From a virus: a stretch of 64,000 nucleotides of DNA. Below the pieces are notes generated by a model, which saw only the letters and a program-made list of their open reading frames with translations, had not been told where the DNA came from and did no database searches. Positions 6,240-30,181 of the stretch are shown here, in pieces (position 1 is the first letter of the stretch; every line of letters begins with the position of its first letter). Both the position numbers and the translations under genes were made by a program. The DNA lies in the IMG/VR virus record IMGVR_UViG_3300044475_000063, positions 1 to 64,000 of that record. One strand, 5' to 3'.

Positions 6240-6257
6240 CAATTTGTTTTGACTATG

Positions 6258-6289
6258 GAAATTAAAGGTATAATCAGTTTTATCTAAAA
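6258..6289 (+). promoter_or_regulatory. conserved block with TATAAT (6269-6274) upstream of sheath gene
   Basis: gaaattaaaggTATAATcagttttatctaaa is identical at 55504..55535. No good -35 is present, so it may need an activator. Confidence 0.35.
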
Positions 6290-6311
6290 CCACACATATA
6301 GGACGCCGAGA

Positions 6312-7643: not shown

Positions 7644-7657
7644 TCAGGAGAAAATAA

Positions 7658-8086
7658 ATGAGTGCAGGTGATTTGCAACGTACTTATGACCCACAACAGG
7701 TAATCATTACTGTTGGCGGCGTCATCGTTAGCGGCTTCGGGGATGGTGACTTCATCACCGTAAGCTATGATGAAGAACGATACAATTCCAAAGCAGGCGC
7801 AGATGGCGAAGTGGCCCGAGCCAAGAATGCTAACCGCATGGGTACTTTTGAAATGACCCTTTCTGCTACTAGCGCTGCGAATGCTGAACTGTCGGCGCTG
7901 TTCAATCTGGAAATGCTCGGCGGTTTTGACGTAGTTCTGCCTGTAGCAGTCGCTGACTTGTCGGGTACTTCGGGGGCTTTCGCTTCTAAGTGCTGGATTA
8001 AGCAAGCGCCGGAATTTACCCGTGGGAAAGATGTTGCCGATGCCGTATGGCAGATCGCTGCATCCGACCTTACCATTTCGTACTAA
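7658..8086 (+). CDS. tail tube protein (DUF3277-like)
   Basis: 142 aa after the sheath, RBS AGGAG. Paralog at 56905..57333. Confidence 0.75.
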   Translation: MSAGDLQRTYDPQQVIITVGGVIVSGFGDGDFITVSYDEERYNSKAGADGEVARAKNANRMGTFEMTLSATSAANAELSALFNLEMLGGFDVVLPVAVADLSGTSGAFASKCWIKQAPEFTRGKDVADAVWQIAASDLTISY

Positions 8087-8114
8087 GTAGTAACCTCACC
8101 ATCACGGAGAACAA

Positions 8115-8576
8115 ATGCAACGCGAAATTTTTATCATCGGTAACAAAGAATTCTCGGCAATCAAGATCGCGCCGTTTCAGGCAAACTCTATTGCTATGAA
8201 GCTGCAAAAGATTATCCTTCCTGTGCTGGGTGAGTTCACGGGCGGCGGCAAAGGCAACTTGATGGATATGGACATCAGCGGACCGCTTAAAACGCTGTCT
8301 GAGAGCCTTGACGATAAGGTTATGACTGATATCGTACTGCCGATGTTTAAAGCCTCTGGCGTGGTTTGCGTAACAGATACCGTAAAGGTTGATTGCGAAA
8401 CCAATATCAACAAAGTATTCGTTGATGCGGATGGCCTTGCAGACCTGTATGAACTGATTTACGAAGTCGCTATGTTCAATTTCAAGCCTTTTTTTATCAA
8501 GCTGAAGGACCGCTTTGGAGCCAGCGTTACCGCAGCAAATCCAGCGGCATTGACTTCAGCCGTTGCGGCAGCCTAA
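8115..8576 (+). CDS. tail assembly chaperone (G-type, zero-frame product)
   Basis: 153 aa between tube and tape measure; contains a slippery heptamer. Confidence 0.7.
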   Translation: MQREIFIIGNKEFSAIKIAPFQANSIAMKLQKIILPVLGEFTGGGKGNLMDMDISGPLKTLSESLDDKVMTDIVLPMFKASGVVCVTDTVKVDCETNINKVFVDADGLADLYELIYEVAMFNFKPFFIKLKDRFGASVTAANPAALTSAVAAA

Positions 8577-8758
8577 GTCCATCGCTTGAAAAAGAGTTGT
8601 GGATATGGCGTCCAATTCTAGCGGGCAAATGCACTCTAGAAGGCGTTTTAAATGGATTGGTAGGCGTTGAAGAACTTCTAAAGCTAAACGCATTATTGGA
8701 TATGTCAGAAGCCTACCAAGCCTATGCAGATGAGAAATCAAAAAGCAGCCGGAAATGA
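8115..8758 (+). CDS. tail assembly chaperone, -1 frameshift fusion (G-T type, about 214 aa)
   Basis: The -1 frame is open from T_TTT_TTT (8489-8495) to TGA 8756-8758 (87 codons, no stop). The extension is conserved at aa level in copy 2. Confidence 0.6.
8489..8495 (+). promoter_or_regulatory. -1 programmed frameshift slippery heptamer T_TTT_TTT
   Basis: The zero-frame reads cct ttt ttt atc. An identical site occurs at 57736..57742. Confidence 0.6.
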
Positions 8759-8772
8759 CCGGCTGTTTTTTT
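8746..8772 (+). terminator. intrinsic terminator overlapping the stop of the frameshift product
   Basis: CAGCCGG-aaatga-CCGGCTG followed by T7. Conserved at 57993..58019. Confidence 0.7.
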
Positions 8773-8786
8773 AGGAGATATGCACG

Positions 8787-10574
8787 ATGATTGTGCGTGA
8801 ATTGATTACCCGTTTCGGATTTGATTTGAATCAGGCCCAATTGCGGCGCTATGAGCAAGGCGTGAATAACTTCCGCCGCCAAGCGGACGAGGCGGCAGAC
8901 TCATTCCGCAACATGTTTGCTGCTTTCCTTGGCTTTGGTGCTATTCGTGGGATTGCCCGTGTAGCAGATGATATGCAATCGCTTGAGGCCCGAGTAGGTC
9001 AATTGCCTCAGACTATCACGAGCGCGGCTGATGCTTTCGATATGGTTACGGCTCGTGCCAGTGCTGCACGTCAATCCATCGACGCTTACACTAACTTTTA
9101 CATCAAGCTACAACACGCTGGCAAAGAATTTATCAAGACCCAAGAGGAAGGGCTTTTGATTACTGACACGATCAGTAAGGCTCTTATTCTTGGCGGCGCT
9201 ACGGCGCAGGAACAAGCCTCTACGCTGCTTCAATTCGGACAAGCAATCGGCTCAAACGTGCTGCAAGGCGATGAATTCCGCGCCTTGTCCGAATCCGCGC
9301 CTCAGTTGGTTGACGCGATATCGAAGCAATTGAATATTGCTCGCAGCGATCTTAAGAAGTACGCGAGCGAAGGAAAGCTAACCTCAAAAGTCGTTGTTGA
9401 AGCAGTCAAGGCAATATCGAGCGAATTCGATCAGCGATTTAAAGAAATGCCGCTGACAATTGGAGCCGCAACTACAGTAGTTGCTAATCGTTGGGCTGTA
9501 TTCATCAACCGCTTGAATCGTGAAAGTTCAGCAGTTACAAAGACTGCAAACTTTTTCTTGAAGTCGTTTGATGCAATCGAAAGCGGATTGGCGGATATGG
9601 TCAAGTTCTTCGGCGGCGCAACTAATACGCTCAAGTTCTTCGGCATCGCCTTGGCTACTGCACTTGCTCCGTTTGTGTTCCGTACTGCTGCTGGGGCAAT
9701 TGCTTTCCTGCTGTCACCCATGGGCCTTCTGCTGGCCTCCTTGCTGTTGATCGGCTTGGCTATTGAGGACTTCTATCAATGGATGACAGGCGGGCAATCG
9801 GTCTTCCAGCAGTGGTTTGGCAACTTCGATGAGGCCATGAAAAAGTTGAGGGAATACGAAGGTGTAATCACCTTTGTGCGCGATGCTGTAATCGTCGCTG
9901 TTGGCGTCATGGCGCTTAATTGGACTTGGGCGGCTGGCGTAGCTGTGGCAAGTGCCGCTAAAGCTTTTGGGGCTTGGGTTGCAGGGCTTGCGCGCTTCGG
10001 TATCGCTATGGCAGCTAATTTGCTGGCAGTAGGAGCATGGGTCGTAGGCATTTTGGCGCAAACCGCTGTCCTAGTTGCTGGCTGGGTAGCATCTTTCATA
10101 AGTATGGCGCTTGCTGCCGCGCCAGTTGTTTTGCCCATACTCGCAATCATTGCAGCGATTGGACTGCTGGTTGCAGGTATTTATTACCTTTACAAAAATT
10201 GGGATAAAGTATGGGGCGGGATAAAAGACATCGCTTCCAATGTTTGGGATGGCATAGCGGGCGGATTTAATGCAATGGTAAATAAGCTAAAAGGCTATTG
10301 GAATTCGTTTAAGTCGTTCTTTGGAATGAAGGTAGATACGACTCTCGGTGCTAGTAGTGGCGTTCCTGTTGTCACGCCTACAGTTGCCGCTGGTGCTGCT
10401 GTGGCAGGAGGCGGCGTAGCTGGTGCAGGCTCATCGGTAGTCATCAATCAGACGCTTCCTCCTGGCACTACCGCAGAAACGGCCCAAGCAGCTAAGGATG
10501 CAACGCAGCGCGCCGTAGACTCAGCGTTTGACGTTGGCCGTTTGTCGCGGCAGATGGGGCAGGTGGGCGGATGA
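8787..10574 (+). CDS. tail tape measure protein
   Basis: 595 aa. N-terminal tape-measure motif (LQFGQAIGSNVLQGDEFRAL), central TM-rich region, Gly/Ala-rich C-terminus. Confidence 0.9.
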   Translation: MIVRELITRFGFDLNQAQLRRYEQGVNNFRRQADEAADSFRNMFAAFLGFGAIRGIARVADDMQSLEARVGQLPQTITSAADAFDMVTARASAARQSIDAYTNFYIKLQHAGKEFIKTQEEGLLITDTISKALILGGATAQEQASTLLQFGQAIGSNVLQGDEFRALSESAPQLVDAISKQLNIARSDLKKYASEGKLTSKVVVEAVKAISSEFDQRFKEMPLTIGAATTVVANRWAVFINRLNRESSAVTKTANFFLKSFDAIESGLADMVKFFGGATNTLKFFGIALATALAPFVFRTAAGAIAFLLSPMGLLLASLLLIGLAIEDFYQWMTGGQSVFQQWFGNFDEAMKKLREYEGVITFVRDAVIVAVGVMALNWTWAAGVAVASAAKAFGAWVAGLARFGIAMAANLLAVGAWVVGILAQTAVLVAGWVASFISMALAAAPVVLPILAIIAAIGLLVAGIYYLYKNWDKVWGGIKDIASNVWDGIAGGFNAMVNKLKGYWNSFKSFFGMKVDTTLGASSGVPVVTPTVAAGAAVAGGGVAGAGSSVVINQTLPPGTTAETAQAAKDATQRAVDSAFDVGRLSRQMGQVGG

Positions 10575-11227
10575 GCGATCAAGTAGGCGTGTTGTTCAAC
10601 TCGGGGAAAGCCACCTCTCGGTTTGAGTCGGATTTGTTTTCGGTTGAGTTTGACGCGAACTTAAGCGAGGGACATTCTTGGTCTAACGATATCACGGCTA
10701 ATCCAGTAGAGCGCGGGGCGGACGTTACCGACCATATCCGCGAGATTCCAGACCAAGTTACGCTGGTGGGCTTCGTGACGAATACGCCGTTTATCGACTC
10801 GCCTGATGGGAATACTATTACTGACGACAGCGAGGACCGTGTACAGGCTGTGATTGACCGTCTAAAACAGATTCGTGCTGAACGATCTACGGTAATGGTA
10901 TTCACGAAATACGTTCTGTACGAAGATATGGCTATCAAGTCAGTTGACTTCACGCGTGACGCAAGCAACACGAATGCGGTAATTTTTACTGTTCAGTTTC
11001 AGCATATTCGTTTTGCAGAAAATCAAACGGTGGAAGTTCCTGCTGGGATCAGTAAGAAGCTTGATAAAAAGGCAGATGCGAGTACGCAAAAGAAAACCGA
11101 GCCTCAAAAATCAGGTGGTGCAAAACAACCAAAAGCGCCAGAACAATCTAGCTCTGTGCTGTCTAGCACATTGCCTAAATTAAAGAATTTCATATTGGGG
11201 ACTCAGCCTACATTCCCCGGAGGTTAA
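10571..11227 (+). CDS. tail/baseplate protein (hypothetical)
   Basis: ATGA-coupled to the tape measure gene, 218 aa. Paralog at 59812..60468. Confidence 0.55.
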   Translation: MSDQVGVLFNSGKATSRFESDLFSVEFDANLSEGHSWSNDITANPVERGADVTDHIREIPDQVTLVGFVTNTPFIDSPDGNTITDDSEDRVQAVIDRLKQIRAERSTVMVFTKYVLYEDMAIKSVDFTRDASNTNAVIFTVQFQHIRFAENQTVEVPAGISKKLDKKADASTQKKTEPQKSGGAKQPKAPEQSSSVLSSTLPKLKNFILGTQPTFPGG

Positions 11228-11233
11228 AGAGCT

Positions 11234-11599
11234 ATGGCAATCATTTTTGAAATACCATTGCTGCCAAATTCAGCGGATCAGACGTTAGATATAACGATTG
11301 AAAACGTCCCTTATACAATGCGCGTTTTATGGAATGTTCGTTTTGAGTATTTCTCTTTAAGCATTTACGAAAAAGGCGGGGATGCTATCTTAACCAATGT
11401 AAAGATGGTTCCTTACTATCCATTGGTAGCTAGGTATCAGCGCTTGCCTTTTGCTGGTGACTTATATTTTGTTCATCGTGGTGGTAAGACATATCGTCCG
11501 GGTTATGAGGATATCGGCGGAGTAACATATGGCTTGTACTATTATGATGCTGAAACGCCATTGTCTTTGCCGTTTCCGCTAGAGCCTATAGGATTCTGA
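11234..11599 (+). CDS. tail/baseplate protein (hypothetical)
   Basis: 121 aa. Paralog at 60474..60839. Confidence 0.55.
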   Translation: MAIIFEIPLLPNSADQTLDITIENVPYTMRVLWNVRFEYFSLSIYEKGGDAILTNVKMVPYYPLVARYQRLPFAGDLYFVHRGGKTYRPGYEDIGGVTYGLYYYDAETPLSLPFPLEPIGF

Positions 11600-11600
11600 A

Positions 11601-12533
11601 ATGCCTTTGTTTGATAGAGTTGCTGAATTGATCGTTGGGCAATCTGGTAAAGAAGGATTGCTAATCAAAGATTTGCGCATGTCTTTTTCAATTGAAAAGA
11701 CGCTCACTGAAACGCTAAATACATCGACCATTCGCATTTACAACCTTAACGCTACCTCGCGCAAGTTGGTCGAGACGCCAAATAACGCGGTTATCCTCAA
11801 GGCTGGGTATCGGCAAGACAAAGGCGCGCTGACGATATTCGTAGGCATTGTTCGCCGCTCTTTGACCGTACGTGAGGGCGTTGATTGGGTGACTGAGCTA
11901 GAGCTTGATGATGGATTGATTGCATACCGTGACAGTAAGTTTTCAACTAGCTTTCCTCCCGGCGCTAAAGGCGTTGATGTGCTTCGCCAGATCGCAAACA
12001 AGTTCGGCATTGCGGTGGGAAAACTGCCGGATGCTATCGAGCAAAAGATTTACCCTAACGGGTTCTCGTTCGTTGGCCGCGCTCGTGATGCTATGGCTAA
12101 GGTCTGCAATTATTTGGGCCTTGAGTGGTCGATTCAAAATCAGACCATTCAGGTACTCAAAAAAGGCGGCTACCGTGAGCGAACTGCTATAGTCATATCT
12201 ACGGATACTGGCATGATTAAATCGCCGCAGCTTGAGGCAAAGACAATGAGTGACAAGCTGGCAGCAAAGCAGGGTTTGACGACAAATAGCGCAGGCGTAG
12301 TTACGAAGAAATCAGACAAGTTGACGGTAAGCGGGAATCCTCCGAAAGATCGCCTAGAGGTTCAAGGCTACAAGGTTGAAACGCTTATGCAGCCTACTAT
12401 TTTGCCCGGTGACGTTGTAAAGGTTAAGGCGGAAGGCATTGATAACTTCTTCAAAGTGGAGAAAGTGACGCATCAGGGCGATACCCACGGGGATGAATGG
12501 GTATCCGAGTGCAGCGTACGCTTTGTAAATTGA
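11601..12533 (+). CDS. baseplate hub-like protein
   Basis: 310 aa, position between tape measure and spike. Highly conserved paralog at 60841..61773. Confidence 0.55.
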   Translation: MPLFDRVAELIVGQSGKEGLLIKDLRMSFSIEKTLTETLNTSTIRIYNLNATSRKLVETPNNAVILKAGYRQDKGALTIFVGIVRRSLTVREGVDWVTELELDDGLIAYRDSKFSTSFPPGAKGVDVLRQIANKFGIAVGKLPDAIEQKIYPNGFSFVGRARDAMAKVCNYLGLEWSIQNQTIQVLKKGGYRERTAIVISTDTGMIKSPQLEAKTMSDKLAAKQGLTTNSAGVVTKKSDKLTVSGNPPKDRLEVQGYKVETLMQPTILPGDVVKVKAEGIDNFFKVEKVTHQGDTHGDEWVSECSVRFVN

Positions 12534-12534
12534 T

Positions 12535-13125
12535 ATGGCAGAAGACACTAGCGACTTCCTAGCAAGCTTTAAGAACGTCATCCAAAGTGAGATGATGGGC
12601 TTGAATACGTCTGTAGAAGGCACTGTTGAATCATATTCTGGCGGTCTAGCAACCATTCTTCCAGATGCAAATAAATATTTCTCGGATGGTGATGTTTTGC
12701 CATTTCCTAAGCTTTTTAAAGTTCCTATCCGATGGCCGTCTTTCAATGGTGGCCTTTGTGGCGTTAAAGGGCCAATTCGTGCTGGTGATAAGGTCTTGGT
12801 AGTCTTTGCACAGCAAGCTAGGGACGGAACCGACGACGACCGACGTTTTGACATTACAGATGCATATGCCATTCCTTGTGGGAGTGCTATGGTTGGCGAG
12901 GCCGACGACAATGATAATTTTTCACTGTGGTTTCTAGATGCTTATATAAAAATAACTAAGGGTGGTGGTGTTAAAATATATGCACCCGGCGGCGTAAGGG
13001 CTGAGACTCCATCGCTTACCTCTACCGGGAATTTGTCCGCTGGCTCTGGTGCTACAGGCACATTCAATACTGCATCTGGAAATGTTGTTACCGTTCAAGA
13101 CGGCATAATTACGAATATATTCTGA
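12535..13125 (+). CDS. baseplate central spike (gpV/Gp138 N-terminal OB-fold-like)
   Basis: 196 aa. The N-terminal 130 aa are collinear with 61775..62449; the C-terminus differs. Confidence 0.65.
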   Translation: MAEDTSDFLASFKNVIQSEMMGLNTSVEGTVESYSGGLATILPDANKYFSDGDVLPFPKLFKVPIRWPSFNGGLCGVKGPIRAGDKVLVVFAQQARDGTDDDRRFDITDAYAIPCGSAMVGEADDNDNFSLWFLDAYIKITKGGGVKIYAPGGVRAETPSLTSTGNLSAGSGATGTFNTASGNVVTVQDGIITNIF

Positions 13126-19168: not shown

Positions 19169-19222
19169 GAACGATTAGTCATGGTATATTACTCTCTAAA
19201 TATCAGTGATTTGGAGATAAAA

Positions 19223-19762
19223 ATGCCAAAGTGCAAGAACTGCAATATTGTTTTTGATGGTGAGTATAGAAAGAAGTTTTGTTGTGCGAATTGTCAGTTT
19301 TTCTTTAGAGTAAATTCTAAAGAGGAATGCTGGGAGTGGCAAGGAAATATAGGCTCGCATGGTTACGGAGTTTTCTCTTTAGAGAAAAAATTCTATACCT
19401 CACATAGGTATTCCTATGAATTTTTCCGTGGCCAAATTCCAGAAAAAATGTTTGTTTGCCATACTTGTGATAATAGATCTTGCATAAGGCCAGATCATTT
19501 ATTCTTGGGTACTCCAGCGGAAAATGCAGCCGATATGGCTAAAAAAGGCAGATCTCCTTGGAAGGGGAAAAAGCGAAGCGATGAATCAAGGTTAAAAATG
19601 AGTTTGGCTAAAAAAGGAAGGAATGGTGTAGCTAGCGATGCTCAAAGAAAAATCGCTTCAGAAACAATGAAAAAACTATGGTCTGACAAAAACTTCAGAG
19701 AAAAAATTTCTTTTGTGACAAAAGAGCGGCATGCAAAAAATAGAATTAAGGAAGAGATTTAA
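19223..19762 (+). CDS. HNH homing endonuclease
   Basis: ATG at 19223 after GGAG. Motifs [14 protein letters not shown]...HRYSYE...[21 protein letters not shown]-rich; sits between the endolysin and spanin genes. Confidence 0.85.
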
Positions 19763-19767: not shown

Positions 19768-20256
19768 ATGCTTATCCTTGCCCAATATAAACGCTGGTTT
19801 GAGATAGGCGCTATTGCGCTGGTGATTATCGGCTTGTTTTGGGCTGTGCATTCTTGGTCTGAAAAGCAGCGTGAGATAGGCCGCGAGGAAATACGTAAAG
19901 AATACGCGGAGCAATTGCGCTTGGCAAAAGAGGCGTCTGACAAGGTGGAAAAAGTTTTACGCGAGCGCGTAGACGATGCAGTAACAAAGGGGAATGAACG
20001 TGAGCAAACAATCCGCACTCTTGCTAGTGCCAATAGCAATGCTTCTATCGGGCTGCGCAACGCAACGGCCTCAATTGGCAACAGCTTGCCCAGCCTATCC
20101 CAAGATGCCCTACGTAACCTCGCCAGTGCCTACGGGTCAGTACTTACAGAGTGCAACGCAAGACTCGGTGAAATGGCAACAAACGCTGAGCGACTCAATT
20201 CCGAAAAAATGACGCTCATTCAAGCTTGGCCTACTGCTCCTGCCGAAGCAAAATAG
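19768..20256 (+). CDS. i-spanin (Rz-like)
   Basis: N-terminal TM, coiled-coil periplasmic part, contains an embedded lipoprotein ORF. Confidence 0.7.
   Translation: MLILAQYKRWFEIGAIALVIIGLFWAVHSWSEKQREIGREEIRKEYAEQLRLAKEASDKVEKVLRERVDDAVTKGNEREQTIRTLASANSNASIGLRNATASIGNSLPSLSQDALRNLASAYGSVLTECNARLGEMATNAERLNSEKMTLIQAWPTAPAEAK
19994..20212 (+). CDS. o-spanin (Rz1-like lipoprotein), embedded in +1 frame
   Basis: Signal peptide with lipobox LLSGC. Pro-rich; entirely inside 19768..20256. Confidence 0.7.
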   Translation: MNVSKQSALLLVPIAMLLSGCATQRPQLATACPAYPKMPYVTSPVPTGQYLQSATQDSVKWQQTLSDSIPKK

Positions 20257-20428
20257 GAATCCACTTAGCAAGCCATTCCTTGTCTGCTTGCGAATATCGG
20301 CGAAGCTTGATCTTTGCCCGTTTCACGCAAGACAGAAATAATTCCTCGCTCGATTGAATATCGCCAAGACGCCCGATAAGCGCTTGGCGTTCTTCCTCAT
20401 CACGCATTGAGATATCCATAGAAGCCAT
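20231..20428 (-). CDS. hypothetical protein (65 aa)
   Basis: ATG at 20428 after AGGA (MASMDISMRDEE..). Last gene of the leftward operon. Confidence 0.45.
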   Translation of the reverse strand: MASMDISMRDEEERQALIGRLGDIQSSEELFLSCVKRAKIKLRRYSQADKEWLAKWIPILLRQEQ

Positions 20429-20480
20429 CCTTAAAACTCTATTCTGAATGCATTCTATAATACCGTCCAATTGATTGTTG

Positions 20481-20558
20481 CTATGAATTTCGACCAAGCA
20501 AATAGCCGACAATTGCACCGAAAAGTACGAGAAGGATTGCGAATAGTTCGTTGGTCAT
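20481..20558 (-). CDS. tiny hydrophobic peptide (25 aa)
   Basis: MTNELFAILLVLFGAIVGYLLGRNS. ATGA overlap with the stop of 20555..21235. Confidence 0.25.
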   Translation of the reverse strand: MTNELFAILLVLFGAIVGYLLGRNS

Positions 20559-21235
20559 GGCTCATCCACTTCACGATAAATAAAGCACTTTTCGCATTGG
20601 TCATTAAGTCCAATACCTGCTGGTTTCCATTGGTGAGTGCATGGATCACTTACGCCAGCCGCATTGAGGGCAGCACAGCAGAACTCGCTAAGCCACACAT
20701 CGCCAATCGGACAGTCTTCTTTCTCTACTGCCGACTTGCGGATCGTTTGCAACGCCGCTACCAGCGCCTTGTTAGGCGCACTGTTGGCGAGGATGGCGGC
20801 ATGTGCGCGCTGGTCTTCCACGATCCATTCAAGCTTGGACTTGCAGCGGTCGATGGGCACAAGGCTGTCGCCATCGTTGTAGCCGCCAGCGGCATAGCAA
20901 CAGAAGAACTCACGCAGCATTTCGCTGTATTCTTCAGCGCTTGGCTTCGCTTGTGCAGCGATGGCAGCTTGCCAGATACGCAAAAAGCCTTGCACCGCAA
21001 TTTCCTGATAACTGCCGTCTTGGTTACGGGTCATAAGCCATTTCCCAAGCTTGCTTACCTCAATCTCAAACGCCGAACGATCACCTTGCGCACCGCTGGC
21101 GACTGAGGGAGCGGCGAGAGCGGCGTTCCAGATTGCAGCGCCTTTGCTGTAAATCGAAAAGTTGCGCAGCTTCTCACGATTCGCGTCCCACCATGCGCTG
21201 TATTCTGGAGTCGATTTGAAGTCTGTCTTGCTCAT
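20555..21235 (-). CDS. hypothetical protein (226 aa, Cys-rich C-terminus)
   Basis: ATGA-coupled. The antisense ORFs are lower quality. Confidence 0.65.
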   Translation of the reverse strand: MSKTDFKSTPEYSAWWDANREKLRNFSIYSKGAAIWNAALAAPSVASGAQGDRSAFEIEVSKLGKWLMTRNQDGSYQEIAVQGFLRIWQAAIAAQAKPSAEEYSEMLREFFCCYAAGGYNDGDSLVPIDRCKSKLEWIVEDQRAHAAILANSAPNKALVAALQTIRKSAVEKEDCPIGDVWLSEFCCAALNAAGVSDPCTHQWKPAGIGLNDQCEKCFIYREVDEP

Positions 21236-21672
21236 GCTTTCTCCTTTGCGATAGCCGCAGAAATCATTTCATCAACGGCGCTTGGTACAGCTTGGCCGTC
21301 CTCATACATGGCGCGAATACACCGTCCAGAGTCAGGGCTATCACGTAGCCACCGATACCGCTCAGCATCAGCAGCGAGGGATTCGATGCGAGCGATCAGG
21401 GCGAGGACAACGTCTGGCGATGCGGCAGCGATGTATGCGCTGTCGTTGTCACCGCAGTCGTCGCCTGCCAGATTCACAGGTGGATAGCTTTGGTGGAAGG
21501 TCACGGCGATCAGTGCTTCTTCGCCAAACATGCCCATGTTATGGCTACGGCTGTTGGTGGCCGAAATAGCGGTCATGCACTGGTAGCGCTCGTCGTCGCC
21601 GTATTGCACGTACCACGGCCCCGGCGTTGCTGCCATCGCCAGCGCCTTCAGTTGTTGCAGGTCGTTGTTCAT
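21232..21672 (-). CDS. Ead/Ea22-like protein
   Basis: ATG at 21672 (MNNDLQQLKALA..TPGPW). C-terminal AERYRWLRD motif is shared with 32379..32651. Confidence 0.6.
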   Translation of the reverse strand: MNNDLQQLKALAMAATPGPWYVQYGDDERYQCMTAISATNSRSHNMGMFGEEALIAVTFHQSYPPVNLAGDDCGDNDSAYIAAASPDVVLALIARIESLAADAERYRWLRDSPDSGRCIRAMYEDGQAVPSAVDEMISAAIAKEKA

Positions 21673-21818
21673 TTTTGACGCCCTTTCCAATATTTAGATG
21701 CAACCACAGCAGACAGGCTCAATCCGAACTTCTTTGCCAGTTCCATTGCTGTAGTGCCGGGGTTTGCTTTTAGGTATGCGGCAGCTTTTTCAGCTGCTGC
21801 GCTTGGTCGTCCTGCCAT
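21669..21818 (-). CDS. small HTH protein (49 aa)
   Basis: Below the ORF-track cutoff: MAGRPSAAAEKAAAYLKANPGTTAMELAKKFGLSLSAVVASKYWKGRQK. RBS AGGAGG; ATGA overlap with the next gene. Confidence 0.55.
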   Translation of the reverse strand: MAGRPSAAAEKAAAYLKANPGTTAMELAKKFGLSLSAVVASKYWKGRQK

Positions 21819-21895
21819 ATAGCCTCCTGTGTTAGAAATTTCATACTAACACAAATACTTAAGATAGCAAACAAAGATTGTGGTATTATTGATGA

Positions 21896-22942
21896 ATGAT
21901 CTTGACCTATCGTTACCGCGTGAAATCTCTTAATGGGCTGCTCAACAAGCAAGCTCGTGCGGTAAGTTATGTCTTTAATTACTGTAATGATAGGCAAAAG
22001 GATGCTTTGCGCTTTGGCCGTAAATGGCTATCCGGTTTCGATCTGAATTACCTAACTGCTGGTAGCAGTAAAGAACTCGGACTGCATTCCGGTACGGTTC
22101 AGGCAGTATGTGAGCAATATGCAAAATCACGCTCTCAGAAGAAATTACCATACCTAAGGTATAGAGGTAAGCACTCTCTTGGCTGGGTGCCTCTGAAAGG
22201 TTGTTATTTGAAACGAGAGGGTAATTCTTTCCGCTTTGCCAGCAACACATTCCGAGTATTTGATAGTAGGCCTCTTCCAGAAGGCAAGATCAAAGATGGC
22301 ACGAATTTCTCTCAGGATTCGCGTGGCAACTGGTTCCTCAATATCGTGATCGAAGTAGAGGATGCCCCGCGCCGTGAAATATCTAGCAGATTGGGCGTTG
22401 ATCTTGGCTTGAAGGAGTTTGCGACTTTCTCGACTGGCGAGAAGATAGATGCACAAAGGCTGTATCGCAAAGCCGAGAAGCAGCTAGCAATAGCCCAGCG
22501 TGCCCGTAAGAAAAGTCGGGTGAAGGCTATTCACGCCAAGATTGCGGCACAGCGCAGAGACTTCCACCACAAGCTATCAACGCGCCTGGTGCGTGAATTC
22601 GACTACATCGCAGTTGGAAACGTCAATGCCGCTGCACTTGCAAAAACCAGTATGGCTAAATCTGTCTTAGACGCTGGCTGGTATTCCTTCAAACAAATGC
22701 TAGCGTACAAGTCCATTAGGAATGGCGCATGGTATGAAGAAGTGAATGAGAGTTTTACCACCCAAACCTGCTCTACTTGTGGCGCTTTGCCAGAGTCGAG
22801 GCCGAAAGGTATCGCAGGACTTGGAATAAGAGAATGGGTTTGTAGTGACTGCGGTACGAAACATGACCGTGATACCAATGCTGCTATAAACATTCTCCGT
22901 CGCGGACGTGCGACGCTTGCAGAAGGAAAAGCCGCCTTTTAG
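21896..22942 (+). CDS. tnpB: TnpB (IS605 OrfB-type RNA-guided nuclease family)
   Basis: 348 aa. RuvC-I GVDLG, Zn finger CSTCG...CSDCG, RuvC-III HDRDTNAAINI. The canonical RuvC-II Glu position reads AVGNVN. Confidence 0.9.
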   Translation: MILTYRYRVKSLNGLLNKQARAVSYVFNYCNDRQKDALRFGRKWLSGFDLNYLTAGSSKELGLHSGTVQAVCEQYAKSRSQKKLPYLRYRGKHSLGWVPLKGCYLKREGNSFRFASNTFRVFDSRPLPEGKIKDGTNFSQDSRGNWFLNIVIEVEDAPRREISSRLGVDLGLKEFATFSTGEKIDAQRLYRKAEKQLAIAQRARKKSRVKAIHAKIAAQRRDFHHKLSTRLVREFDYIAVGNVNAAALAKTSMAKSVLDAGWYSFKQMLAYKSIRNGAWYEEVNESFTTQTCSTCGALPESRPKGIAGLGIREWVCSDCGTKHDRDTNAAINILRRGRATLAEGKAAF

Positions 22943-22949
22943 GCGGCTT
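22929..22949 (-). terminator. hairpin AAGCCGCC-ttta-GGCGGCTT (IS right-end hairpin and/or minus-strand terminator)
   Basis: 8-bp stem. On the minus strand it is followed by TTTT. It overlaps the tnpB stop and lies 6 nt from the stop of 22955..23470. Confidence 0.5.
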
Positions 22950-22954
22950 GGACG

Positions 22955-23470
22955 TCAATCCTTGGTTGCGGTGTTCTCCACATCGCCAGAAGGCGCGGCG
23001 GCTGGCTGCGTGGCCACGGCGAGCATCGCTTTATAAGCATCGGCCATATCGGGGTCATCGATAACTTGGCGCTTGCTGTACCACTCTTCCGCAAACGCTA
23101 CGATCATTTCATCAGTGACCGAAAGCGGCACGATGGCGTAGCCTTCCGGCACCGCGGCTACTGCTTGCTGGGATGCGACAGGGTCGGCGTAGAGTGGCTC
23201 AGGGTCTTCATGTTCGTCTTCCCCTACAGAATTCTCGTATTGGAGTCGCTCTTCTTTTGCTGTAGCGTAGTCAGGGAAATATTCCCACATGCCAGAAATG
23301 ACGACTCGGTACGCAACCGGCTCTAGCTCAGGCCGCTTCATCACCTCTTCCGCCACCTGTTGCGCAGCATTGAGCTTGTGCCAGCGCGCATCATCTTTGC
23401 CGCAGTCAGTAAAGTCTACTTCCTTCATCGCCTCTACGCACTGGCGGAGGGCTTCGTGAGCGGTCGTCAT
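22955..23470 (-). CDS. hypothetical protein (171 aa)
   Basis: ATGA-coupled. Motif VPEGYAIVP..T.EM is shared with 25215..26645. Confidence 0.65.
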   Translation of the reverse strand: MTTAHEALRQCVEAMKEVDFTDCGKDDARWHKLNAAQQVAEEVMKRPELEPVAYRVVISGMWEYFPDYATAKEERLQYENSVGEDEHEDPEPLYADPVASQQAVAAVPEGYAIVPLSVTDEMIVAFAEEWYSKRQVIDDPDMADAYKAMLAVATQPAAAPSGDVENTATKD

Positions 23471-23757
23471 GCTGGCACCTCGCCGATGCAGAGCGCACGG
23501 CTAATTCCCGCCACAAGCACATGCTGGTTCAAGCCTAACTGCTTGTAGGCGATGAAGTGGATGAGCAGGTCAAACAGGTTATCGCTGCTACGGCCGATTT
23601 CATCGCAGTGATACGCCACAGCAGTGCTGTACTCGCCGCGAATAGATTGATTATGACTATCACGCTTTGGCTCGTAGTATTTCGTGACTTCCATTTTCAC
23701 GCCGTCGAAGTCATAATCAAAAACTTCGATCACTCGGCCCCATGGGAATTTACTCAT
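23467..23757 (-). CDS. hypothetical protein (96 aa)
   Basis: ORF with an RBS, part of the operon. Confidence 0.6.
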   Translation of the reverse strand: MSKFPWGRVIEVFDYDFDGVKMEVTKYYEPKRDSHNQSIRGEYSTAVAYHCDEIGRSSDNLFDLLIHFIAYKQLGLNQHVLVAGISRALCIGEVPA

Positions 23758-23787
23758 TCTCTTCTCCTATGCTGGCACTGCCAGCGG

Positions 23788-24090
23788 TTAATCATCTACT
23801 TGTTTGTCTGGGTCGTTTTCTGGATCGGTGCAAAAGCTGCACGGAGGGCTGCAAGTCGGCGCGCTGCAATAGCACTCTGTATGCTTGTAGTCATCCGGTG
23901 GCTCGACGTGCATTGAACCATTGCGAAGCTGATCGCTGACGCGGCCCCAAGCTGCAATGCCCTGCTCGATTTGCTGCTGTGATGAACGCACGCTGTCTCG
24001 CGCATCGACGCCTTGCACTTTTCGGCTAAGCCAATCGGCAACTTGGCGCGCTTCCATTAGCGCCATGTAGATATCGTCTTTATCGCTCAT
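23788..24090 (-). CDS. hypothetical protein (100 aa, Cys-rich C-terminus)
   Basis: ATG at 24090 in an ATGA overlap with the upstream gene. Confidence 0.55.
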   Translation of the reverse strand: MSDKDDIYMALMEARQVADWLSRKVQGVDARDSVRSSQQQIEQGIAAWGRVSDQLRNGSMHVEPPDDYKHTECYCSAPTCSPPCSFCTDPENDPDKQVDD

Positions 24091-24308
24091 GACTTCACCC
24101 ACCAAGCCGCAAACTCAGGCGCATAAAGCAGCACCACACAGCCAGCCACCAGACCAGCAACGCCAGCCAGATACCACGCGGTGTATTTGTTCAGCCACCA
24201 GGGGCGCGTGGTTGGAAGCTTATTATTCACTTCGATCCCTCCTTGATGAAGCCGCCAGCTATAGGCGAGAAGATCAAGGAAACCAGAAACCAAATAGTTA
24301 AGAACCAC
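24087..24308 (-). CDS. small membrane protein (73 aa from GTG; alternatively 27-aa + 47-aa peptides)
   Basis: C-terminal TM segment. Alternative reading: ATG 24310..24227 (27 aa) followed by GTG 24230..24087 preceded by AAGGAGGG. Confidence 0.45.
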   Translation of the reverse strand: MVLNYLVSGFLDLLAYSWRLHQGGIEVNNKLPTTRPWWLNKYTAWYLAGVAGLVAGCVVLLYAPEFAAWWVKS

Positions 24309-24312
24309 ATTT

Positions 24313-24438
24313 TTATTCTCCGATCATTTCAATTGGCGTTTTCCCGCCCTTATGGTTGACGATAAAAGGGAGCGCGACACTCACTGCGAAGGTAGCCACA
24401 GCCAACAGGCCTACGGCGATGCGAAATGCTTTTTCCAT
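24313..24438 (-). CDS. small membrane peptide (41 aa)
   Basis: MEKAFRIAVGLLAVATFAVSVALPFIVNHKGGKTPIEMIGE. RBS AGGAAA; first ORF after the promoter. Confidence 0.4.
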   Translation of the reverse strand: MEKAFRIAVGLLAVATFAVSVALPFIVNHKGGKTPIEMIGE

Positions 24439-24474
24439 GATTTTTCCTTTTTTCTGGTTGATTCGATGTGTTTA

Positions 24475-24503
24475 ATCATACGCACATGATTATCCGTCGT
24501 CAA
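24475..24503 (-). promoter_or_regulatory. sigma70-type promoter TTGACG-N17-TATGAT
   Basis: The minus strand reads TTGACGacgGATAATCatgtgcgTATGAT. A twin lies at 34147..34175. Confidence 0.6.
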
Positions 24504-24539
24504 CTACGAAGTTGAATTGTGCGAAAATACAACAGGCAT

Positions 24540-24570
24540 AAAAAAGCCCGACTAACAAGCGGGCTTTTCC
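24540..24570 (-). terminator. intrinsic terminator (usable in both directions)
   Basis: AGCCCG-9 nt-CGGGCT with an A6 run on one side and T4 on the other. Lies downstream of 24584..24880. Confidence 0.7.
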
Positions 24571-24583
24571 TTTGGTGCTGGCG

Positions 24584-24880
24584 TTACGTTACTTCACGCC
24601 ACATGCCGCGATGTACATAGTTTAGACAAGTAAGTAGCGTGAAATCACCATATCCATGTGACTGCCTTCCGTCTTTCATTTCAGCTATGGTTTCGCCATC
24701 TTTTACGACAATATATGCCACGTCACTTGAGAATCCGCCGATGCACTCAAAGCGACGAGTGCAGAATGAATTGTTTATTTCATCTGCTCTCTTTCGAGCA
24801 ATAGCTTCAGCAATATGTGCCTTTGCTAGCAAAATATCTGCATTGTTTTTCAGAGCAAGGTATTCTTGATATTCATTCAT
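24584..24880 (-). CDS. hypothetical protein (98 aa)
   Basis: ORF with an RBS; the antisense ORF was rejected. Confidence 0.6.
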   Translation of the reverse strand: MNEYQEYLALKNNADILLAKAHIAEAIARKRADEINNSFCTRRFECIGGFSSDVAYIVVKDGETIAEMKDGRQSHGYGDFTLLTCLNYVHRGMWREVT

Positions 24881-24909: not shown

Positions 24910-25218
24910 TTACTCCGCTGGCTTGGCGGCAAGCAGGGCGCGGACATCTCTTATCGCCTCGTTGTATCCTTGCTCCCAAACAATTTCATCTTGCCGATTC
25001 CAATCCCAATTTTCCGGCGCTTTGCCTTTAAGCTTGCTCAGATCAACCGGAGCTGCCGTCTGTGCTTCAAAGGCGGCGCGCAACTCGGCGACAAGCGTTT
25101 CGTAGTCCGCCAACTCTTCCTTCATTGCCCTGATGTGCGCTTCGCTGCCGTAGGCTGTTCCAAAAGGAATGCGCGATTGCCAAGGCTCAGGCGTCTTTAT
25201 TTCTTTATTGGTCTTCAT
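24910..25218 (-). CDS. hypothetical protein (102 aa)
   Basis: ATGA-coupled to the 476-aa gene. Confidence 0.6.
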   Translation of the reverse strand: MKTNKEIKTPEPWQSRIPFGTAYGSEAHIRAMKEELADYETLVAELRAAFEAQTAAPVDLSKLKGKAPENWDWNRQDEIVWEQGYNEAIRDVRALLAAKPAE

Positions 25219-26645
25219 GGCTTACTCCGCTGGCCGTCAATGTCGCGTTCCCACTCACCAATAAGAGTCATGACAACAGCGAAAAACTCAGATAAAGGGT
25301 GGCTTTCATTGCTCCGGACTTCATAAGCTAAACGGTTGCCAAGTGTAAGCATGGCTTCATAATCCGCCTCGCTGTTTATCGCACGTAGGCCAGAGATATT
25401 GGTGATGCTATTCCACGCGCTAACCAAATTATTTTTTACATCGTCCGCTGGCTTGGCGGCGAGAGCGCGGATAGCGGCGGCGTCCAGTCCGAAGCGGACG
25501 CAGTCGCCATAGGTCAGCTTGTCGGCAGGTACAGGCACCATGCCCGCCTGCTGGCTCAGCGCATCACCCTGCGCGGGGGATGTCTGGACTTCAAGGAACT
25601 TGCGCACTTGGGTGTTGATGTACGCATCTTCTGTTGGCCCTTTGCGCGCCTTCGCCACATCAATTGCACGGGGCGGGATATGCGGCAGCACGTAGCGCAG
25701 CATGGCGACGGCATCGGCTACTGGCTGCGCCTGTGCTGGCGATGGGGCGGCGGAAAGCATAGACTCCCATACGTGCAATGCGTGTGCCGGTGATCCGCCG
25801 ATGCCAGATGGGGTTCCATTGTAAGCATCCACCATGGCTAAAGTCGGCTCTTTCGGCACCAACTGCCATCCTTCCGGCACCCCCGCACCCTTGCTTGCTT
25901 GGGATGCGAGAGCGGCGCGGCGATTCCACAATGCTTCTGCTTCTTCACGCGTACTCGACCCGAAGACGTTAAACCTGCAGTCTTTAGTGGTGCTGGAGCA
26001 CATCACGTCGTAGCCCTCTTCTTCGCCATCAGGGTAGTGCTCAGCAGGCGATCCGCAAAACGGGCACGGCATCAAACCGTCATCTTGCGCCTTCACCTGC
26101 ACGCTTGGCGCATCATTCCCGTTTGCGCGGGAACGGCCCGGTGCTGCGGCTGGCCGCTGGCTAACGGCGAGGATGGCGCGGGAGAATGCCCTGTAATTTT
26201 CGATTCCGCCTAAACCGGCGTATGGTTTGGCAATGGTATCGATCTGCTCATCACTCAGCGCCGCTTGCGCATGCTGCTGCGGGGCGGCGGCACGGTTGGC
26301 ACGCAATGCCAGATCGCGCTCATGCGTGAGGTGCGCAATCTGCGCCTTCAAGAGCTTGCGCTCGTCAGCCACAGCCTTTGCCGCAAATGCTGCGGCGTGG
26401 CTATCGATGTGGGCTACCAGAGAAGCATGATTCTCGCGGTAATTTTCAATTCTTGCGGCGTATTGGCCTAGCAGGTTGTTGAATTCAGGCGTGTCTATCG
26501 TATCTTCTATCACTATAGGTTGCGTAAAAAGCACGCGTCCTTCCCAATGGCATTCGTTGACAAGGCTTTCTTGTTGTTCTTGGCTTGTTTCAAACCAAGG
26601 GAAAGATTGGTCTTTTCGCGCTTGAAATATTTTTTCTTGGCTCAC
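25215..26645 (-). CDS. mosaic 476-aa protein with central Lar-like restriction-alleviation zinc ribbon
   Basis: CPFCGSPAEHYPDGEEEGYDVMCSSTTKDCRFNVFGSSTREEAEALWNRR resembles the Lar family. PEGWQLVP repeat domain; the C-terminal 50 aa resemble the leader of HigA-type regulators. Confidence 0.65.
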   Translation of the reverse strand: MSQEKIFQARKDQSFPWFETSQEQQESLVNECHWEGRVLFTQPIVIEDTIDTPEFNNLLGQYAARIENYRENHASLVAHIDSHAAAFAAKAVADERKLLKAQIAHLTHERDLALRANRAAAPQQHAQAALSDEQIDTIAKPYAGLGGIENYRAFSRAILAVSQRPAAAPGRSRANGNDAPSVQVKAQDDGLMPCPFCGSPAEHYPDGEEEGYDVMCSSTTKDCRFNVFGSSTREEAEALWNRRAALASQASKGAGVPEGWQLVPKEPTLAMVDAYNGTPSGIGGSPAHALHVWESMLSAAPSPAQAQPVADAVAMLRYVLPHIPPRAIDVAKARKGPTEDAYINTQVRKFLEVQTSPAQGDALSQQAGMVPVPADKLTYGDCVRFGLDAAAIRALAAKPADDVKNNLVSAWNSITNISGLRAINSEADYEAMLTLGNRLAYEVRSNESHPLSEFFAVVMTLIGEWERDIDGQRSKP

Positions 26646-28562: not shown

Positions 28563-29186
28563 TTATTTCCTCAAGATAGATTCATTACGGGAGACAACTT
28601 TTTCAAACTCAGCAAGTTCTAGCACCATGTTGTCAATGAACTTTTCATCGCGCATTACTCGCCTGATAAACAACTCTTTTCCTACACTGGCAAGCTGTGG
28701 GCAATACATAACAAAATCACACCACTTGCGGGCCATCATCCACATGCCTCCTTGCATCTGGTGCATGTACTCGGACATATCTTCTGTATCCCACATAGCA
28801 ATCAAGGTTTCCGCGCCCACAATGCACTTGATTTCAAGCATTCCGTCATTGTCTATAAGCCCATCCGTGCTATATCCGAATAGCCGATCATCTGTAAGAA
28901 CCACACCAGCTTCGGTAGCGAGGTTGCCAGTACGAACCTCATAGGCCATTCGCGCTTCTGGCTCCAATTCTTTGCCGCGCTTCATTTGCCATGAGTTAAA
29001 CATTTCATCGCATGGCTGCTTGCTAATACGCTCAACAGCTACTTGTGCAGCATATAGGCGACTTTTTGCTGTTGGTAAGCCCTTTGCTGTCGTCTCCGTT
29101 GCATCACGAAACTTGCTGGCTGTAATAACGCCGCAGCGCGCAAGATGCCATTCTTCTGAGCCTTGTTCGCATTCAATAAAAATCAT
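28563..29186 (-). CDS. YqaJ-type recombination exonuclease
   Basis: QGSEEWHLARCGVITASKF... and LEIKC (PD-(D/E)XK). ATGA-coupled to recT. Confidence 0.85.
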   Translation of the reverse strand: MIFIECEQGSEEWHLARCGVITASKFRDATETTAKGLPTAKSRLYAAQVAVERISKQPCDEMFNSWQMKRGKELEPEARMAYEVRTGNLATEAGVVLTDDRLFGYSTDGLIDNDGMLEIKCIVGAETLIAMWDTEDMSEYMHQMQGGMWMMARKWCDFVMYCPQLASVGKELFIRRVMRDEKFIDNMVLELAEFEKVVSRNESILRK

Positions 29187-30181
29187 TGCATTCCTCCGTG
29201 GCGCTGGGCGTCGAGTTCCTCATCAGTAAGCGGCGGAACATCGCTCGGCGGCATTTCGATAGTGCGCTCTTCGTCCTGCTGCTGTTGCGCGGCGTCCGCC
29301 AGCGCTTGGCGGTGCATGGCAATGGCTGCTTTTAGGCGCTTATGATCTTCTGGCTGTTGAGCGAGACGTGCATTGTTTGAGCGCCAGTAAGCCAGAGCCT
29401 CAGAGTCGGTGCGCGTCTGCTTTGCCTCGGCAATCATCACAGCAACATCAACATAGTTCTGATTGGTTTCACTCGTAGCCAGCCCTTCGGCATTGTCAAT
29501 GTTCAAGCGATCCATTGCATAATCCATGCGCTCGGTCTTAGGCCAGCCTTTATAGGCGCGTTTGATGACGGTCTTTTTAATCATTTCGCCTTCGTCGCTA
29601 TGCCAAGGCGTAGACTTGATTTTCTTGGCTATAAATGCCTTCCAGCCTTCCGAACGGTCACGCACGCGATGCACTTCCTCAAGCGACATTTCAGTAACCA
29701 GAAAATCGCCGCTATGAATCTTGGCAACCACATACACGCCGATAATGTCGCCGCGCTCGGCTTCCTTGGAAAATCGCTTAAATTCGTGCGTAGGCTGATC
29801 GCCCAGCTTGCCAGGAGTGTAGATGTCATGTTCGCGCACAATCTCAGCGTGCGCCCACAAAACGCTGCCAGAAGCTACAGCAATATCGCGCAGGCCCATG
29901 TAGCTGATATCAAGGCAAATCTTGCCATCACGTGGCACCAGATAGGCTTGTTTGCGCGCCGGATTCAAGCTTATGCCAATCGCCGCAATGTTGGTCACGG
30001 CGTTGATAACGCTCTGCTTGTTCTTCATCGCGCACGAAAGCGCATACTCGTTGTTTTGCAGAACTTGAATCGCAAATCCAGATTCACGCTCAAAGTTTAT
30101 GTTCTGATCGACAGACACCCGCGCAAAGTCGTCGCGTGCGTTGGCAATCTCGCCTGTGATAATGGCAAGTGCGTTAGACAT
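29183..30181 (-). CDS. recT: RecT single-strand annealing protein
   Basis: 332 aa with GISLNPARKQAYLVP and downstream RecT-family blocks. Confidence 0.85.
   Translation of the reverse strand: MSNALAIITGEIANARDDFARVSVDQNINFERESGFAIQVLQNNEYALSCAMKNKQSVINAVTNIAAIGISLNPARKQAYLVPRDGKICLDISYMGLRDIAVASGSVLWAHAEIVREHDIYTPGKLGDQPTHEFKRFSKEAERGDIIGVYVVAKIHSGDFLVTEMSLEEVHRVRDRSEGWKAFIAKKIKSTPWHSDEGEMIKKTVIKRAYKGWPKTERMDYAMDRLNIDNAEGLATSETNQNYVDVAVMIAEAKQTRTDSEALAYWRSNNARLAQQPEDHKRLKAAIAMHRQALADAAQQQQDEERTIEMPPSDVPPLTDEELDAQRHGGMQ

Follow-up and report, generated by a model that had tools for sequence, protein, structure and literature searches.

The window examined here, a 64,000-nucleotide stretch of virus DNA (IMG/VR record IMGVR_UViG_3300044475_000063, positions 1 to 64,000), contains a tnpB gene within the early operon of a phage. 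Our analyses suggest that this gene is one part of a larger unit, a homing-type selfish cassette derived from an IS605 element and independent of the TnpA transposase, which would comprise a small helix-turn-helix (HTH) gene, a divergent and leaderless tnpB and an omega-RNA. This explanation is held with a confidence slightly above even and draws on sequence comparisons, among them the following: the predicted guide of the omega-RNA matches the corresponding gene junction of a relative without the cassette, the HTH gene accompanies tnpB between differing flanks, and TnpB retains the residues expected of a nuclease. The features concerned are as follows.

21673..22958 (+): proposed whole cassette, 1286 bp (HTH gene, control region, tnpB and omega-RNA right end), delimited as a shared block
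21669..21818 (-): 49-aa three-helix HTH gene, divergent from tnpB (constant linkage to tnpB, AlphaFold2 model)
21819..21895 (no strand): divergent control region, conserved among five HTH-tnpB contexts
21896..22942 (+): tnpB, 348 aa, predicted RNA-guided nuclease of the rearranged RuvC-II type (profile matches, alignments, AlphaFold2/Foldseek)
22898..22958 (+): predicted omega-RNA 3' scaffold and element right end, with the terminal conserved GGACGTCAA at 22958 (covariation, homology boundary)
22959..22974 (+): predicted guide TCCTTGGTTGCGGTGT, lying where the copies become variable past the right end
22955..23470 (-): 171-aa phage gene of unassigned function, right neighbor of tnpB
21232-21672 (-): Ead/Ea22-like protein gene of the early operon

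Right end, omega-RNA and insertion junction

Comparisons were made with fetched loci carrying relatives of TnpB, of the HTH gene or of the flanking genes, which are referred to by L-numbers (L001 etc.). When copies of the TnpB family were lined up, a conserved right end of the form ...GGGAATCC(stem)TTTAG(stem)GAGGACGTCAA was detected, beyond which the flanks were unrelated. Homology among the copies ended sharply right after GTCAA, a point corresponding to 22958 in the window, and the right limit of the cassette is placed firmly at this position by the alignments. The original prediction, made from the letters of the window, had described a very compact element; at this end the limit lies 16 nt past the tnpB stop rather than about 12 nt. 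The window has a right end of the IS200/IS605 type, with a subterminal hairpin and a TCAA-type cleavage site.

An alignment (A3) of 42 related right ends was folded to a consensus and compared with 500 shuffles and with slid controls. Paired cells made up 96.8% and compensatory changes were present in 16 of the 18 pairs, while none of the 500 shuffles matched the observed pairing and the slid controls were 38-57% paired. G-U pairs were frequent in the helices, which argues for an RNA of the plus strand. Three helices were resolved.

22898-22904 with 22909-22915 (+): helix 1, from covariation
22916-22918 with 22923-22925 (+): helix 2, from covariation
22929-22935 with 22943-22949 (+): helix 3, across the tnpB stop TAG (22940-22942), from covariation

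By its covariation, the omega-RNA scaffold is real; it occupies the 3' part of tnpB plus 16 nt and ends at 22958, while its start probably lies further upstream, inside the tnpB open reading frame (ORF). An Rfam scan of 21600-23300 at E values up to 10 returned just Sphinx_2 and P9, both at chance level and under their gathering scores, and no curated Rfam omega-RNA family covers the element. The covariance search proposed with the original prediction was, therefore, negative for Rfam families, while covariation among the 42 right ends gave a positive answer.

A hairpin at 22929-49 with a U-tract on the minus strand had also been noted, and it exists. A terminator scan reported it in the following form.

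22919..22949 (-): terminator-like reading of helix 3, AAGCCGCCTAAAAGGCGGCTT then TTCCTTCTGC

The scan detected two terminator-like sites versus 1.7 expected by chance. The A-run GGAAAAGCC, which gives the minus-strand U-tract, is common to the window, L083, L212 and L213, whereas canonical right ends have GGAATCCCC. Helix 3 is primarily the terminal stem of the omega-RNA, as its covariation shows; on minus-strand transcripts it may also have an insulating or polar effect.

Since the conserved scaffold stops at 22958, the guide is predicted to be the adjacent phage DNA from 22959. A length of 16 nt was assumed by analogy with ISDra2, and up to ~20 nt would be possible. This guide runs antisense to the final codons (T-A-T-K-D) of gene 22955-23470, as anticipated by the claim that it would read into the 3' end of that gene, and has no second match within the window.

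The cassette lies exactly at a stop/start junction, where its insertion would be near-silent since its ends re-create stop codons. The stop TGA (22955-22957) of gene 22955-23470, together with the last base of the final codon GAT, comes from the terminal GTCAA of the element, and the window junction reads ...ACC AAG GA|T TGA CGTCC..., the only coding change being Glu to Asp. Homologues of the 171-aa neighbor are internally very variable and all end ...(T/S)ATKE-stop; the window copy ends ...TATKD-stop. The same stop geometry was present in L212 and L213, in which the stop of the neighboring gene begins 13 nt after the tnpB stop.

Unoccupied forms of this junction were observed in L134 and L135. 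Their sequence, ACC GCA ACC AAG GAA TGA(or TAA) ACC ATG AAC..., leads straight into an Ea22-like gene homologous to window 21232-21672, and the AAGGA within it is the Shine-Dalgarno sequence of this next gene. The flanking genes of L134 are homologous to those of the window cassette. Read on the tnpB strand, the L134 junction consists of TTCAT followed by TCCTTGGTTGCGGT, which matches 14 of the 16 guide bases. TTCAT is the likely transposon-adjacent motif (TAM) of the family, given the arrangement flank-TTCAT-CAG..GCTCCGAGAAACC-hairpin at the canonical left ends of 68 loci. At the window's own target GTCAA stands in the place of the TAM, and the occupied allele would, therefore, be immune. This accords with the general logic of TnpB, whereby the element's own site is immune and the empty site cleavable. 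The target arrangement of a free-standing homing nuclease was thus found, namely, a target in a relative without the cassette (L134, TTCAT plus 14/16) and replacement of the TAM in the carrier.

The comparison with relatives lacking the insert, as had been suggested, was successful to the extent of the L134 junction; the exact empty allele of the window phage was not found among the examined loci. Exact-pattern scans of IMG/VR produced 60 matches to the empty junction GCAACCAAGGAATGA and 16 matches to the occupied junction GTCAATCCTTGGTTGC, all of which were unrelated chance matches on inspection.

A similar junction was observed at the ends of unrelated early genes, which terminate with ...(T/A)(A/V)(T)KE-stop-ACC-ATG, encoded by ACCAAGGAAT(G/A)AACCATG, with AAGGA as the ribosome-binding site of the next gene. 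Sites of this type were located in L134 (~3026-3046), L135 (3310-3330 and near 5700), L083 (~3745-3775) and L212 (~4810-4835). The recurrent junction looks like a common module-boundary sequence, which the window guide is predicted to match.

HTH partner, control region and extent of the cassette

The 49-aa HTH gene had been described as a neighboring gene of the operon. While it does adjoin tnpB, its distribution indicates a constant partner of this TnpB and not a plain operon neighbor. The protein is rare, with just 4 clusters among 5.8 billion protein sequences, and all three close clusters adjoin this TnpB, in divergent orientation, across a conserved region of ~80 nt. At least five HTH-tnpB contexts were distinguished (window/L001/L002; L083/L216/L217; L212; L213; L214/L215). 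DNA-pattern scans for the start of the HTH gene, which do not depend on gene calling, detected only the L083 contig in JGI metagenomes and IMG/VR. The dN/dS ratio of the HTH gene was 0.03-0.08 and that of tnpB 0.07-0.13 at a dS of ~1.4-2.9; for the two genes together dS ranged over ~0.7-2.9, a saturating synonymous divergence. Both genes are under strong purifying selection.

An AlphaFold2 model of the HTH protein has three helices (7-18, 24-31 and 35-48) and no N-terminal strand, so that it does not have a ribbon-helix-helix fold. Pfam matches to HTH families were weak, and the Foldseek matches were generic HTH domains with E values above 0.29. By analogy, the protein may act as a regulator of the divergent promoters. 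The stop TGA of the gene and the ATG of the phage gene that follows share bases (ATGA), and the plus strand at 21668-21672 reads TTCAT. Thus, the ORF extends to the limit of the shared block, and its stop is supplied by the flanking ATGA, which on the plus strand is a TAM-like (T/G)TCAT.

The control region contains the following elements, all identified from the sequence.

21881-21883 and 21884-21889 (+): extended -10, TGG followed by TATTAT, 6 nt before the tnpB ATG
21828-21853: 8-nt inverted repeat, TGTGTTAG (10 nt) CTAACACA
21840-21844: TTCAT, alternative candidate left boundary/TAM, 51 nt before the tnpB ATG

A simple promoter scan of this region yielded nothing at its threshold. The inverted repeat, as an HTH operator palindrome, was present in the window and not conserved in relatives. 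A -10 hexamer lies 6-7 nt before the tnpB ATG throughout the family (L003-L082, L212, L213 and L215), with no Shine-Dalgarno sequence; it is TATTAT with an extended TG in the window, TATAAT in the Oxalobacteraceae copies and TAGGAT with a TTGACA -35 in the Burkholderia copies. This spacing and the lack of a Shine-Dalgarno sequence suggest that the tnpB mRNA is leaderless.

In a sister TnpB group (L008, L009, L010, L012, L014, L021, L084, L085, L092 and L098) an ORF on the same strand ends at the tnpB ATG. Its product (C-terminus ...SELIRRAI.EFLKKQK) seems to be an Arc/CopG-type ribbon-helix-helix protein, and the group seems to match the Arc-tnpB arrangement of bioRxiv 10.64898/2026.09.24.754181. 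Arc is a small ribbon-helix-helix repressor of divergent tnpB promoters in IS605 elements (Moon et al., bioRxiv 10.64898/2026.09.24.754181).

The claim that no TnpA is present was upheld. A tblastn search with an IS608 TnpA sequence detected no Y1 TnpA in the window (best E value, 0.29), while the same query was positive in six of the fetched loci, two of which (L100 and L105) belong to this TnpB family; there were 0 transposase domains (Pfam) among the genes neighboring tnpB. In L100 and L105 a Y1 tnpA is divergent from tnpB, with a left-end hairpin and TCAT beyond tnpA, and because of these features the TnpB family is assigned to the IS605 type. The HTH gene of the window occupies the place of this tnpA. 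The canonical left end (TTCAT CAG..GCTCCGAGAAACC-hairpin, as in the 68 relatives) was not found in the window with as many as 3 mismatches allowed. Clustering of the ORFs flanking ~100 bacterial copies revealed no recurrent TnpA-like ORF, most of these copies being solo.

The cassette was delimited to about 21673-22958 because both outer flanks differ among the window, L083, L212, L213 and L215 while the block is shared. Hence, the left limit probably lies beyond the HTH gene, as judged from linkage, and not in the 77-nt stretch that precedes the ATG, where it had originally been put. Each of the two candidate left limits has a (T/G)TCAT. Over window positions 21371-23149 and 21365-23787, respectively, L001 and L002 do not differ from the window, and they were uninformative on boundaries; exact look-ups of the neighbor proteins returned only contigs also carrying the cassette. 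The right flank of L083 is non-coding.

Predicted catalytic site of TnpB

The 348-aa plus-strand TnpB of the original prediction was recovered as ORF 21896..22942, the sole long plus-strand gene amid the minus-strand genes of the early operon, which span 20231 to about 31195. Its product exceeded the cutoffs of Pfam PF01385 OrfB_IS605 (55.8 bits; cutoff, 30.5), Pfam PF07282 Cas12f1-like_TNB (82.9 bits; cutoff, 26.3) and NCBIfam NF040570 guided_TnpB (231.6 bits; cutoff, 100). An AlphaFold2 model (pLDDT, 71.5) had the ISFba1 and ISDra2 TnpBs, Cas12f and Fanzor2 as top Foldseek matches, and the protein is full length, with no truncation. The RuvC-I Asp, the CxxC...CxxC motif and the RuvC-III Asp were all present as reported, and the earlier hand alignment placing a Gly at the RuvC-II Glu position was correct.

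22400-22402 (+): codon of RuvC-I D169 (GVDLG), from motif
22616-22618 (+): codon of Gly241, at the canonical RuvC-II Glu position, from HMMER alignment
22748-22750 (+): codon of E285 (WYEEVNE), from alignment to Fanzor2 and invariance
22769-22852 (+): codons of zinc-finger C292/C295/C316/C319 (CxxC...CxxC) lie within this range, from motif
22871-22873 (+): codon of RuvC-III D326 (HDRDTN), from motif

HMMER put G241 opposite E278 of ISDra2 TnpB (PDB 8bf8/8h1j) with the single sequence and with a 47-member profile. The window TnpB, therefore, lacks the canonical D-E-D triad with a Glu in the RuvC-II strand, and the proposed alignment with characterized TnpBs did not place a Glu at this position. 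The glutamates reported 40-44 residues downstream of G241 are E281, E282 and E285 (WYEEVNE), with E285 at +44. Conservation was assessed in 105 related TnpBs of 50-100% identity: G241, E285, D326 and all four Cys residues were invariant and D169 was present in 104, while the neighbors of E285 were less conserved (E282 in 103/105 and E281 in 95/105). The original prediction, which had noted a resemblance to rearranged catalytic sites, chose none of the three Glu residues. The resemblance was substantiated for E285, which, besides being invariant, aligned with E467 of mimivirus Fanzor2 (9b0l_P; V-N-E-S-F-T-T-Q-T-C on V-N-E-Y-L-T-T-K-T-C). It is located directly after a beta-strand (279-284), and the Gly at RuvC-II is common to the window TnpB and ApmFanzor2 in the 9b0l alignment.

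The triad predicted from these comparisons, D169/E285/D326, is presumably active. An E467A substitution abolishes Fanzor cleavage (PMC10530073), and the rearranged "TnpB2" enzymes, which have a conserved Glu ~45 residues downstream, include TvTnpB of Thermoplasma volcanium, which cleaves DNA (Jiang et al. 2023, PMC10530073). As the same rearrangement occurs in the validated Fanzor2 E467 and the active TvTnpB, the window TnpB would be expected to be active. RIIr-5 is the largest rearranged clade, having a Glu-to-Gly change with a compensating Glu and a mobility equal to that of other clades (Altae-Tran et al. 2023, PMC10691335). Judged by its site features against the published descriptions, the window TnpB is assigned to this rearranged RuvC-II type (RIIr-5/TnpB2), and the Gly at RuvC-II is best read as a published, widespread trait that marks neither a dead nuclease nor a new active site.

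The TnpB family has more than 5,600 proteins at E values of 1e-10 or below; genomes of Burkholderia, Cupriavidus and Ralstonia carry it in multiple copies, and it was also detected on 49 IMG/VR contigs. The GC content of tnpB (21896-22942) is 42-50%, that of the flanking early genes is 55-60%, and the tnpB value is well under that of the Burkholderiales chromosomal relatives, as judged from their sequences.

Mode of spread, alternatives and related systems

The mechanism envisaged for the cassette draws on the RecE-like and RecT genes of the early operon, which also holds a Lar-like gene.

28563-29186 (-): RecE-like exonuclease gene of the early operon
29183-30181 (-): RecT gene of the early operon
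25215-26645 (-): Lar-like protein gene of the early operon

An active TnpB nuclease would cut unoccupied junctions (TTCAT plus target, as in L134) of co-infecting phages or resident prophages, while the occupied allele, with GTCAA instead of TTCAT before the target, would be spared. The phage RecE/RecT-like genes would then repair the break with the cassette-bearing genome as template, thereby copying the cassette. This mode of copying would amount to TnpA-independent "non-restorative" homing; alternatively, the cut competitor genome might be lost. The HTH protein would repress the divergent promoters, in the manner of Arc in other elements of the IS605 type. TnpA-independent spread and non-restorative homing are discussed in a review (PMC13565253). 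A bolder version of this proposal, which we put forward as tentative, is that the cassette is a natural RNA-guided "free-standing homing endonuclease" of temperate phages that targets conserved stop/Shine-Dalgarno/start junctions (..AAGGAATGA..) between early-gene modules, inserts near-silently, spreads and contributes to mosaicism, with the HTH protein replacing Arc as repressor.

A number of observations weigh against a homing cassette. The left boundary is ambiguous because no allele with the HTH gene and without tnpB was found and TTCAT is present both at 21668-21672 and at 21840-21844. Some phages that lack TnpB carry a distant HTH homologue, P0150 (53% identity). The sole TTCAT-bearing unoccupied site, that of L134, matches 14 of the 16 guide bases and not all of them, and the L135 site has TTTAT and 12 matching guide bases. 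The assignment of TTCAT as the TAM derives solely from conservation beside canonical left ends. In L083 (5991-7031; contig shared with L216 and L225, with L217 similar) tnpB is interrupted, leaving two ORFs of 152 and 115 aa beside an intact HTH gene, which reflects either decay of this copy or an error in sequencing. In L214/L215 an HTH gene 96% identical to that of the window and the same control region are combined with a TnpB nearer to the bacterial insertion sequence copies (84% to Duganella L003) and a right end of the canonical GGAATCCCC type; the mixed parts of L215 indicate that ordinary recombination also shuffles parts of the cassette. The split tnpB of L083 and the recombinant parts of L215 would, on the other hand, be consistent with a selfish element passing through a cycle of invasion and decay.

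The main rival is an ordinary non-autonomous insertion of the IS605/IS1341 type, at ~21845-22958 and 3' of the TTCAT at 21840-21844, which came from a Burkholderiales host, was mobilized in trans by a host Y1 TnpA and landed beside a phage HTH gene. We consider this rather unlikely, although the abundance of the family in Burkholderia, Cupriavidus and Ralstonia and its frequency in phages, the canonical form of the right end, the position of a TTCAT 51 nt before the tnpB ATG and the distant HTH homologue in phages without TnpB are all as such an insertion would predict. However, the left-end hairpin and consensus of canonical copies are absent, and the putative TAM at this site varies among relatives (TTCAT, TACAT, TTTAT and TGCAT). 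Moreover, the close HTH homologues were never observed without this TnpB, the pair has co-diverged to a dS of ~1 under purifying selection, and it persists while both outer flanks change.

A less probable alternative, which we regard as doubtful, is that a homing-independent, domesticated TnpB serves the phage as a weapon, cutting competing or resident relatives at the ...ACCGCAACCAAGGA(A)TGA junction, without copying itself, in interference competition or superinfection exclusion. The recurrence of the Shine-Dalgarno-containing target junction in L134, L135 (two sites), L083 and L212 would suit this role, as would the absence of a second copy of the target from the window, and a precedent for phage nucleases in competition is cited in PMC13565253. 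The cassette is found in differing flanks with exact ends, though, like a mobile unit, and the guides differ by context (L212, L215 and L083), as expected of a guide taken from the local flank; furthermore, killing and homing are not mutually exclusive. Finally, a nuclease-dead, TldR-like RNA-guided repressor, which the original prediction had offered in view of the Gly at the canonical Glu position and which recalls the inactivity of some TnpBs with active-site substitutions (bioRxiv 10.64898/2026.09.24.754181), is very improbable and was rejected, as the compensating Glu is invariant, D169, E285, D326 and the four Cys residues are intact in 104-105 of the 105 relatives, the protein is untruncated, the family is multicopy and mobile, enzymes of the same rearrangement cleave DNA (PMC10530073) and the guide is directed to the 3' end of a gene, not to a promoter.

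The Gly at RuvC-II is already known and marks a large rearranged TnpB clade that is expected to be active. What is new, as a modest variant, is a TnpB unit in phages with an HTH partner, without TnpA or a left end, with stop-regenerating ends and with a guide directed to a conserved junction. This organization merits follow-up as a compact 1.29-kb unit that has lost the transposase and the left-end hairpin and is still strongly selected in several phages, and because it is placed on translationally coupled gene junctions and has a guide matching the empty junction of relatives. If homing does occur, the cassette would spread between co-infecting phages and help to drive mosaicism. It would then exemplify in nature the non-restorative homing of OMEGA elements between phages, until now mostly a theoretical idea, and would offer for study an RNA-guided nuclease system that is both small (348 aa plus 49 aa) and self-regulated.

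The window contains a temperate phage genome of about 50 kb that encodes a terminase, portal, protease and tail sheath; its nearest terminases are those of Burkholderia phages, at ~51% identity. A megablast search of 20200-24600 against 50,697 phage records gave 0 matches, and the 171-aa neighbor protein had no relatives in IMG/VR. The block of structural genes is duplicated (window 1-13000 versus 50011-62239, offset by ~50 kb); since the two copies have a nucleotide identity of only 79-91%, the 98-kb source contig is considered to hold two related phage genomes in tandem, either prophages lying one after the other or two strains joined during assembly. The early region of the second copy lies beyond the window limits. 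A free-standing HNH_3/NUMOD3 homing-endonuclease gene of 193 aa is present between late/lysis-region genes at 19181-19762 (+), where the GC content is low (35-39%), at a distance of ~2 kb from the TnpB cassette, and is thus a second mobile nuclease gene in a phage carrying this cassette. A tRNA-Gly gene (anticodon TCC) is located at 40494-40569 (+), just upstream of the terminase region.

Among known systems, the rearranged RIIr-5/TnpB2 proteins share with the window TnpB the replacement of Glu by Gly, the downstream Glu, the zinc finger, a DRDxN RuvC-III motif and a 3' omega-RNA; unlike those described, the window tnpB has no TnpA and no left-end hairpin, has a 49-aa HTH partner and lies in a phage early operon. 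Mimivirus Fanzor2 (PDB 9b0l) resembles it in the ..I.(V/I)G..N.. of RuvC-II, in VNE..TT(Q/K)TCS.CG and as a structural match, but is a larger protein of a eukaryotic virus with IS607-type linkage and an overall identity of ~20%. The ISDra2 TnpB of the IS200/IS605 group has the same fold (TM, 0.71), an omega-RNA over the 3' end of the gene, a guide formed by the DNA past the right end and insertion 3' of a short TAM without duplication, the last being only presumed for the window; it differs in its canonical Glu, E278, and in retaining TnpA and both subterminal hairpins. TldR proteins likewise have a TnpB ancestry and no adjacent transposase, but have lost catalytic residues or the C-terminus and have guides directed to host promoters.

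The IS605 elements with Arc are similar to the window in having, within the element, a tiny DNA-binding gene and a divergent tnpB separated by a short region of promoters; in these, however, the partner is a ribbon-helix-helix protein and TnpA is usually kept, whereas the window has a three-helix HTH partner and no TnpA. Phages also carry free-standing homing endonuclease genes, such as those of the T4 Seg/Mob type, which undergo intronless homing. As in the window, a nuclease gene lies between conserved phage genes and its target is the cognate site in relatives without it. Such genes spread by recombinational repair with co-conversion, and by analogy the same would be expected of the window cassette. 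In contrast to Seg/Mob, for which recognition is not RNA guided and self-immunity comes from sequence polymorphism, recognition by the window cassette would be RNA guided and self-immunity would result from loss of the TAM next to the target.

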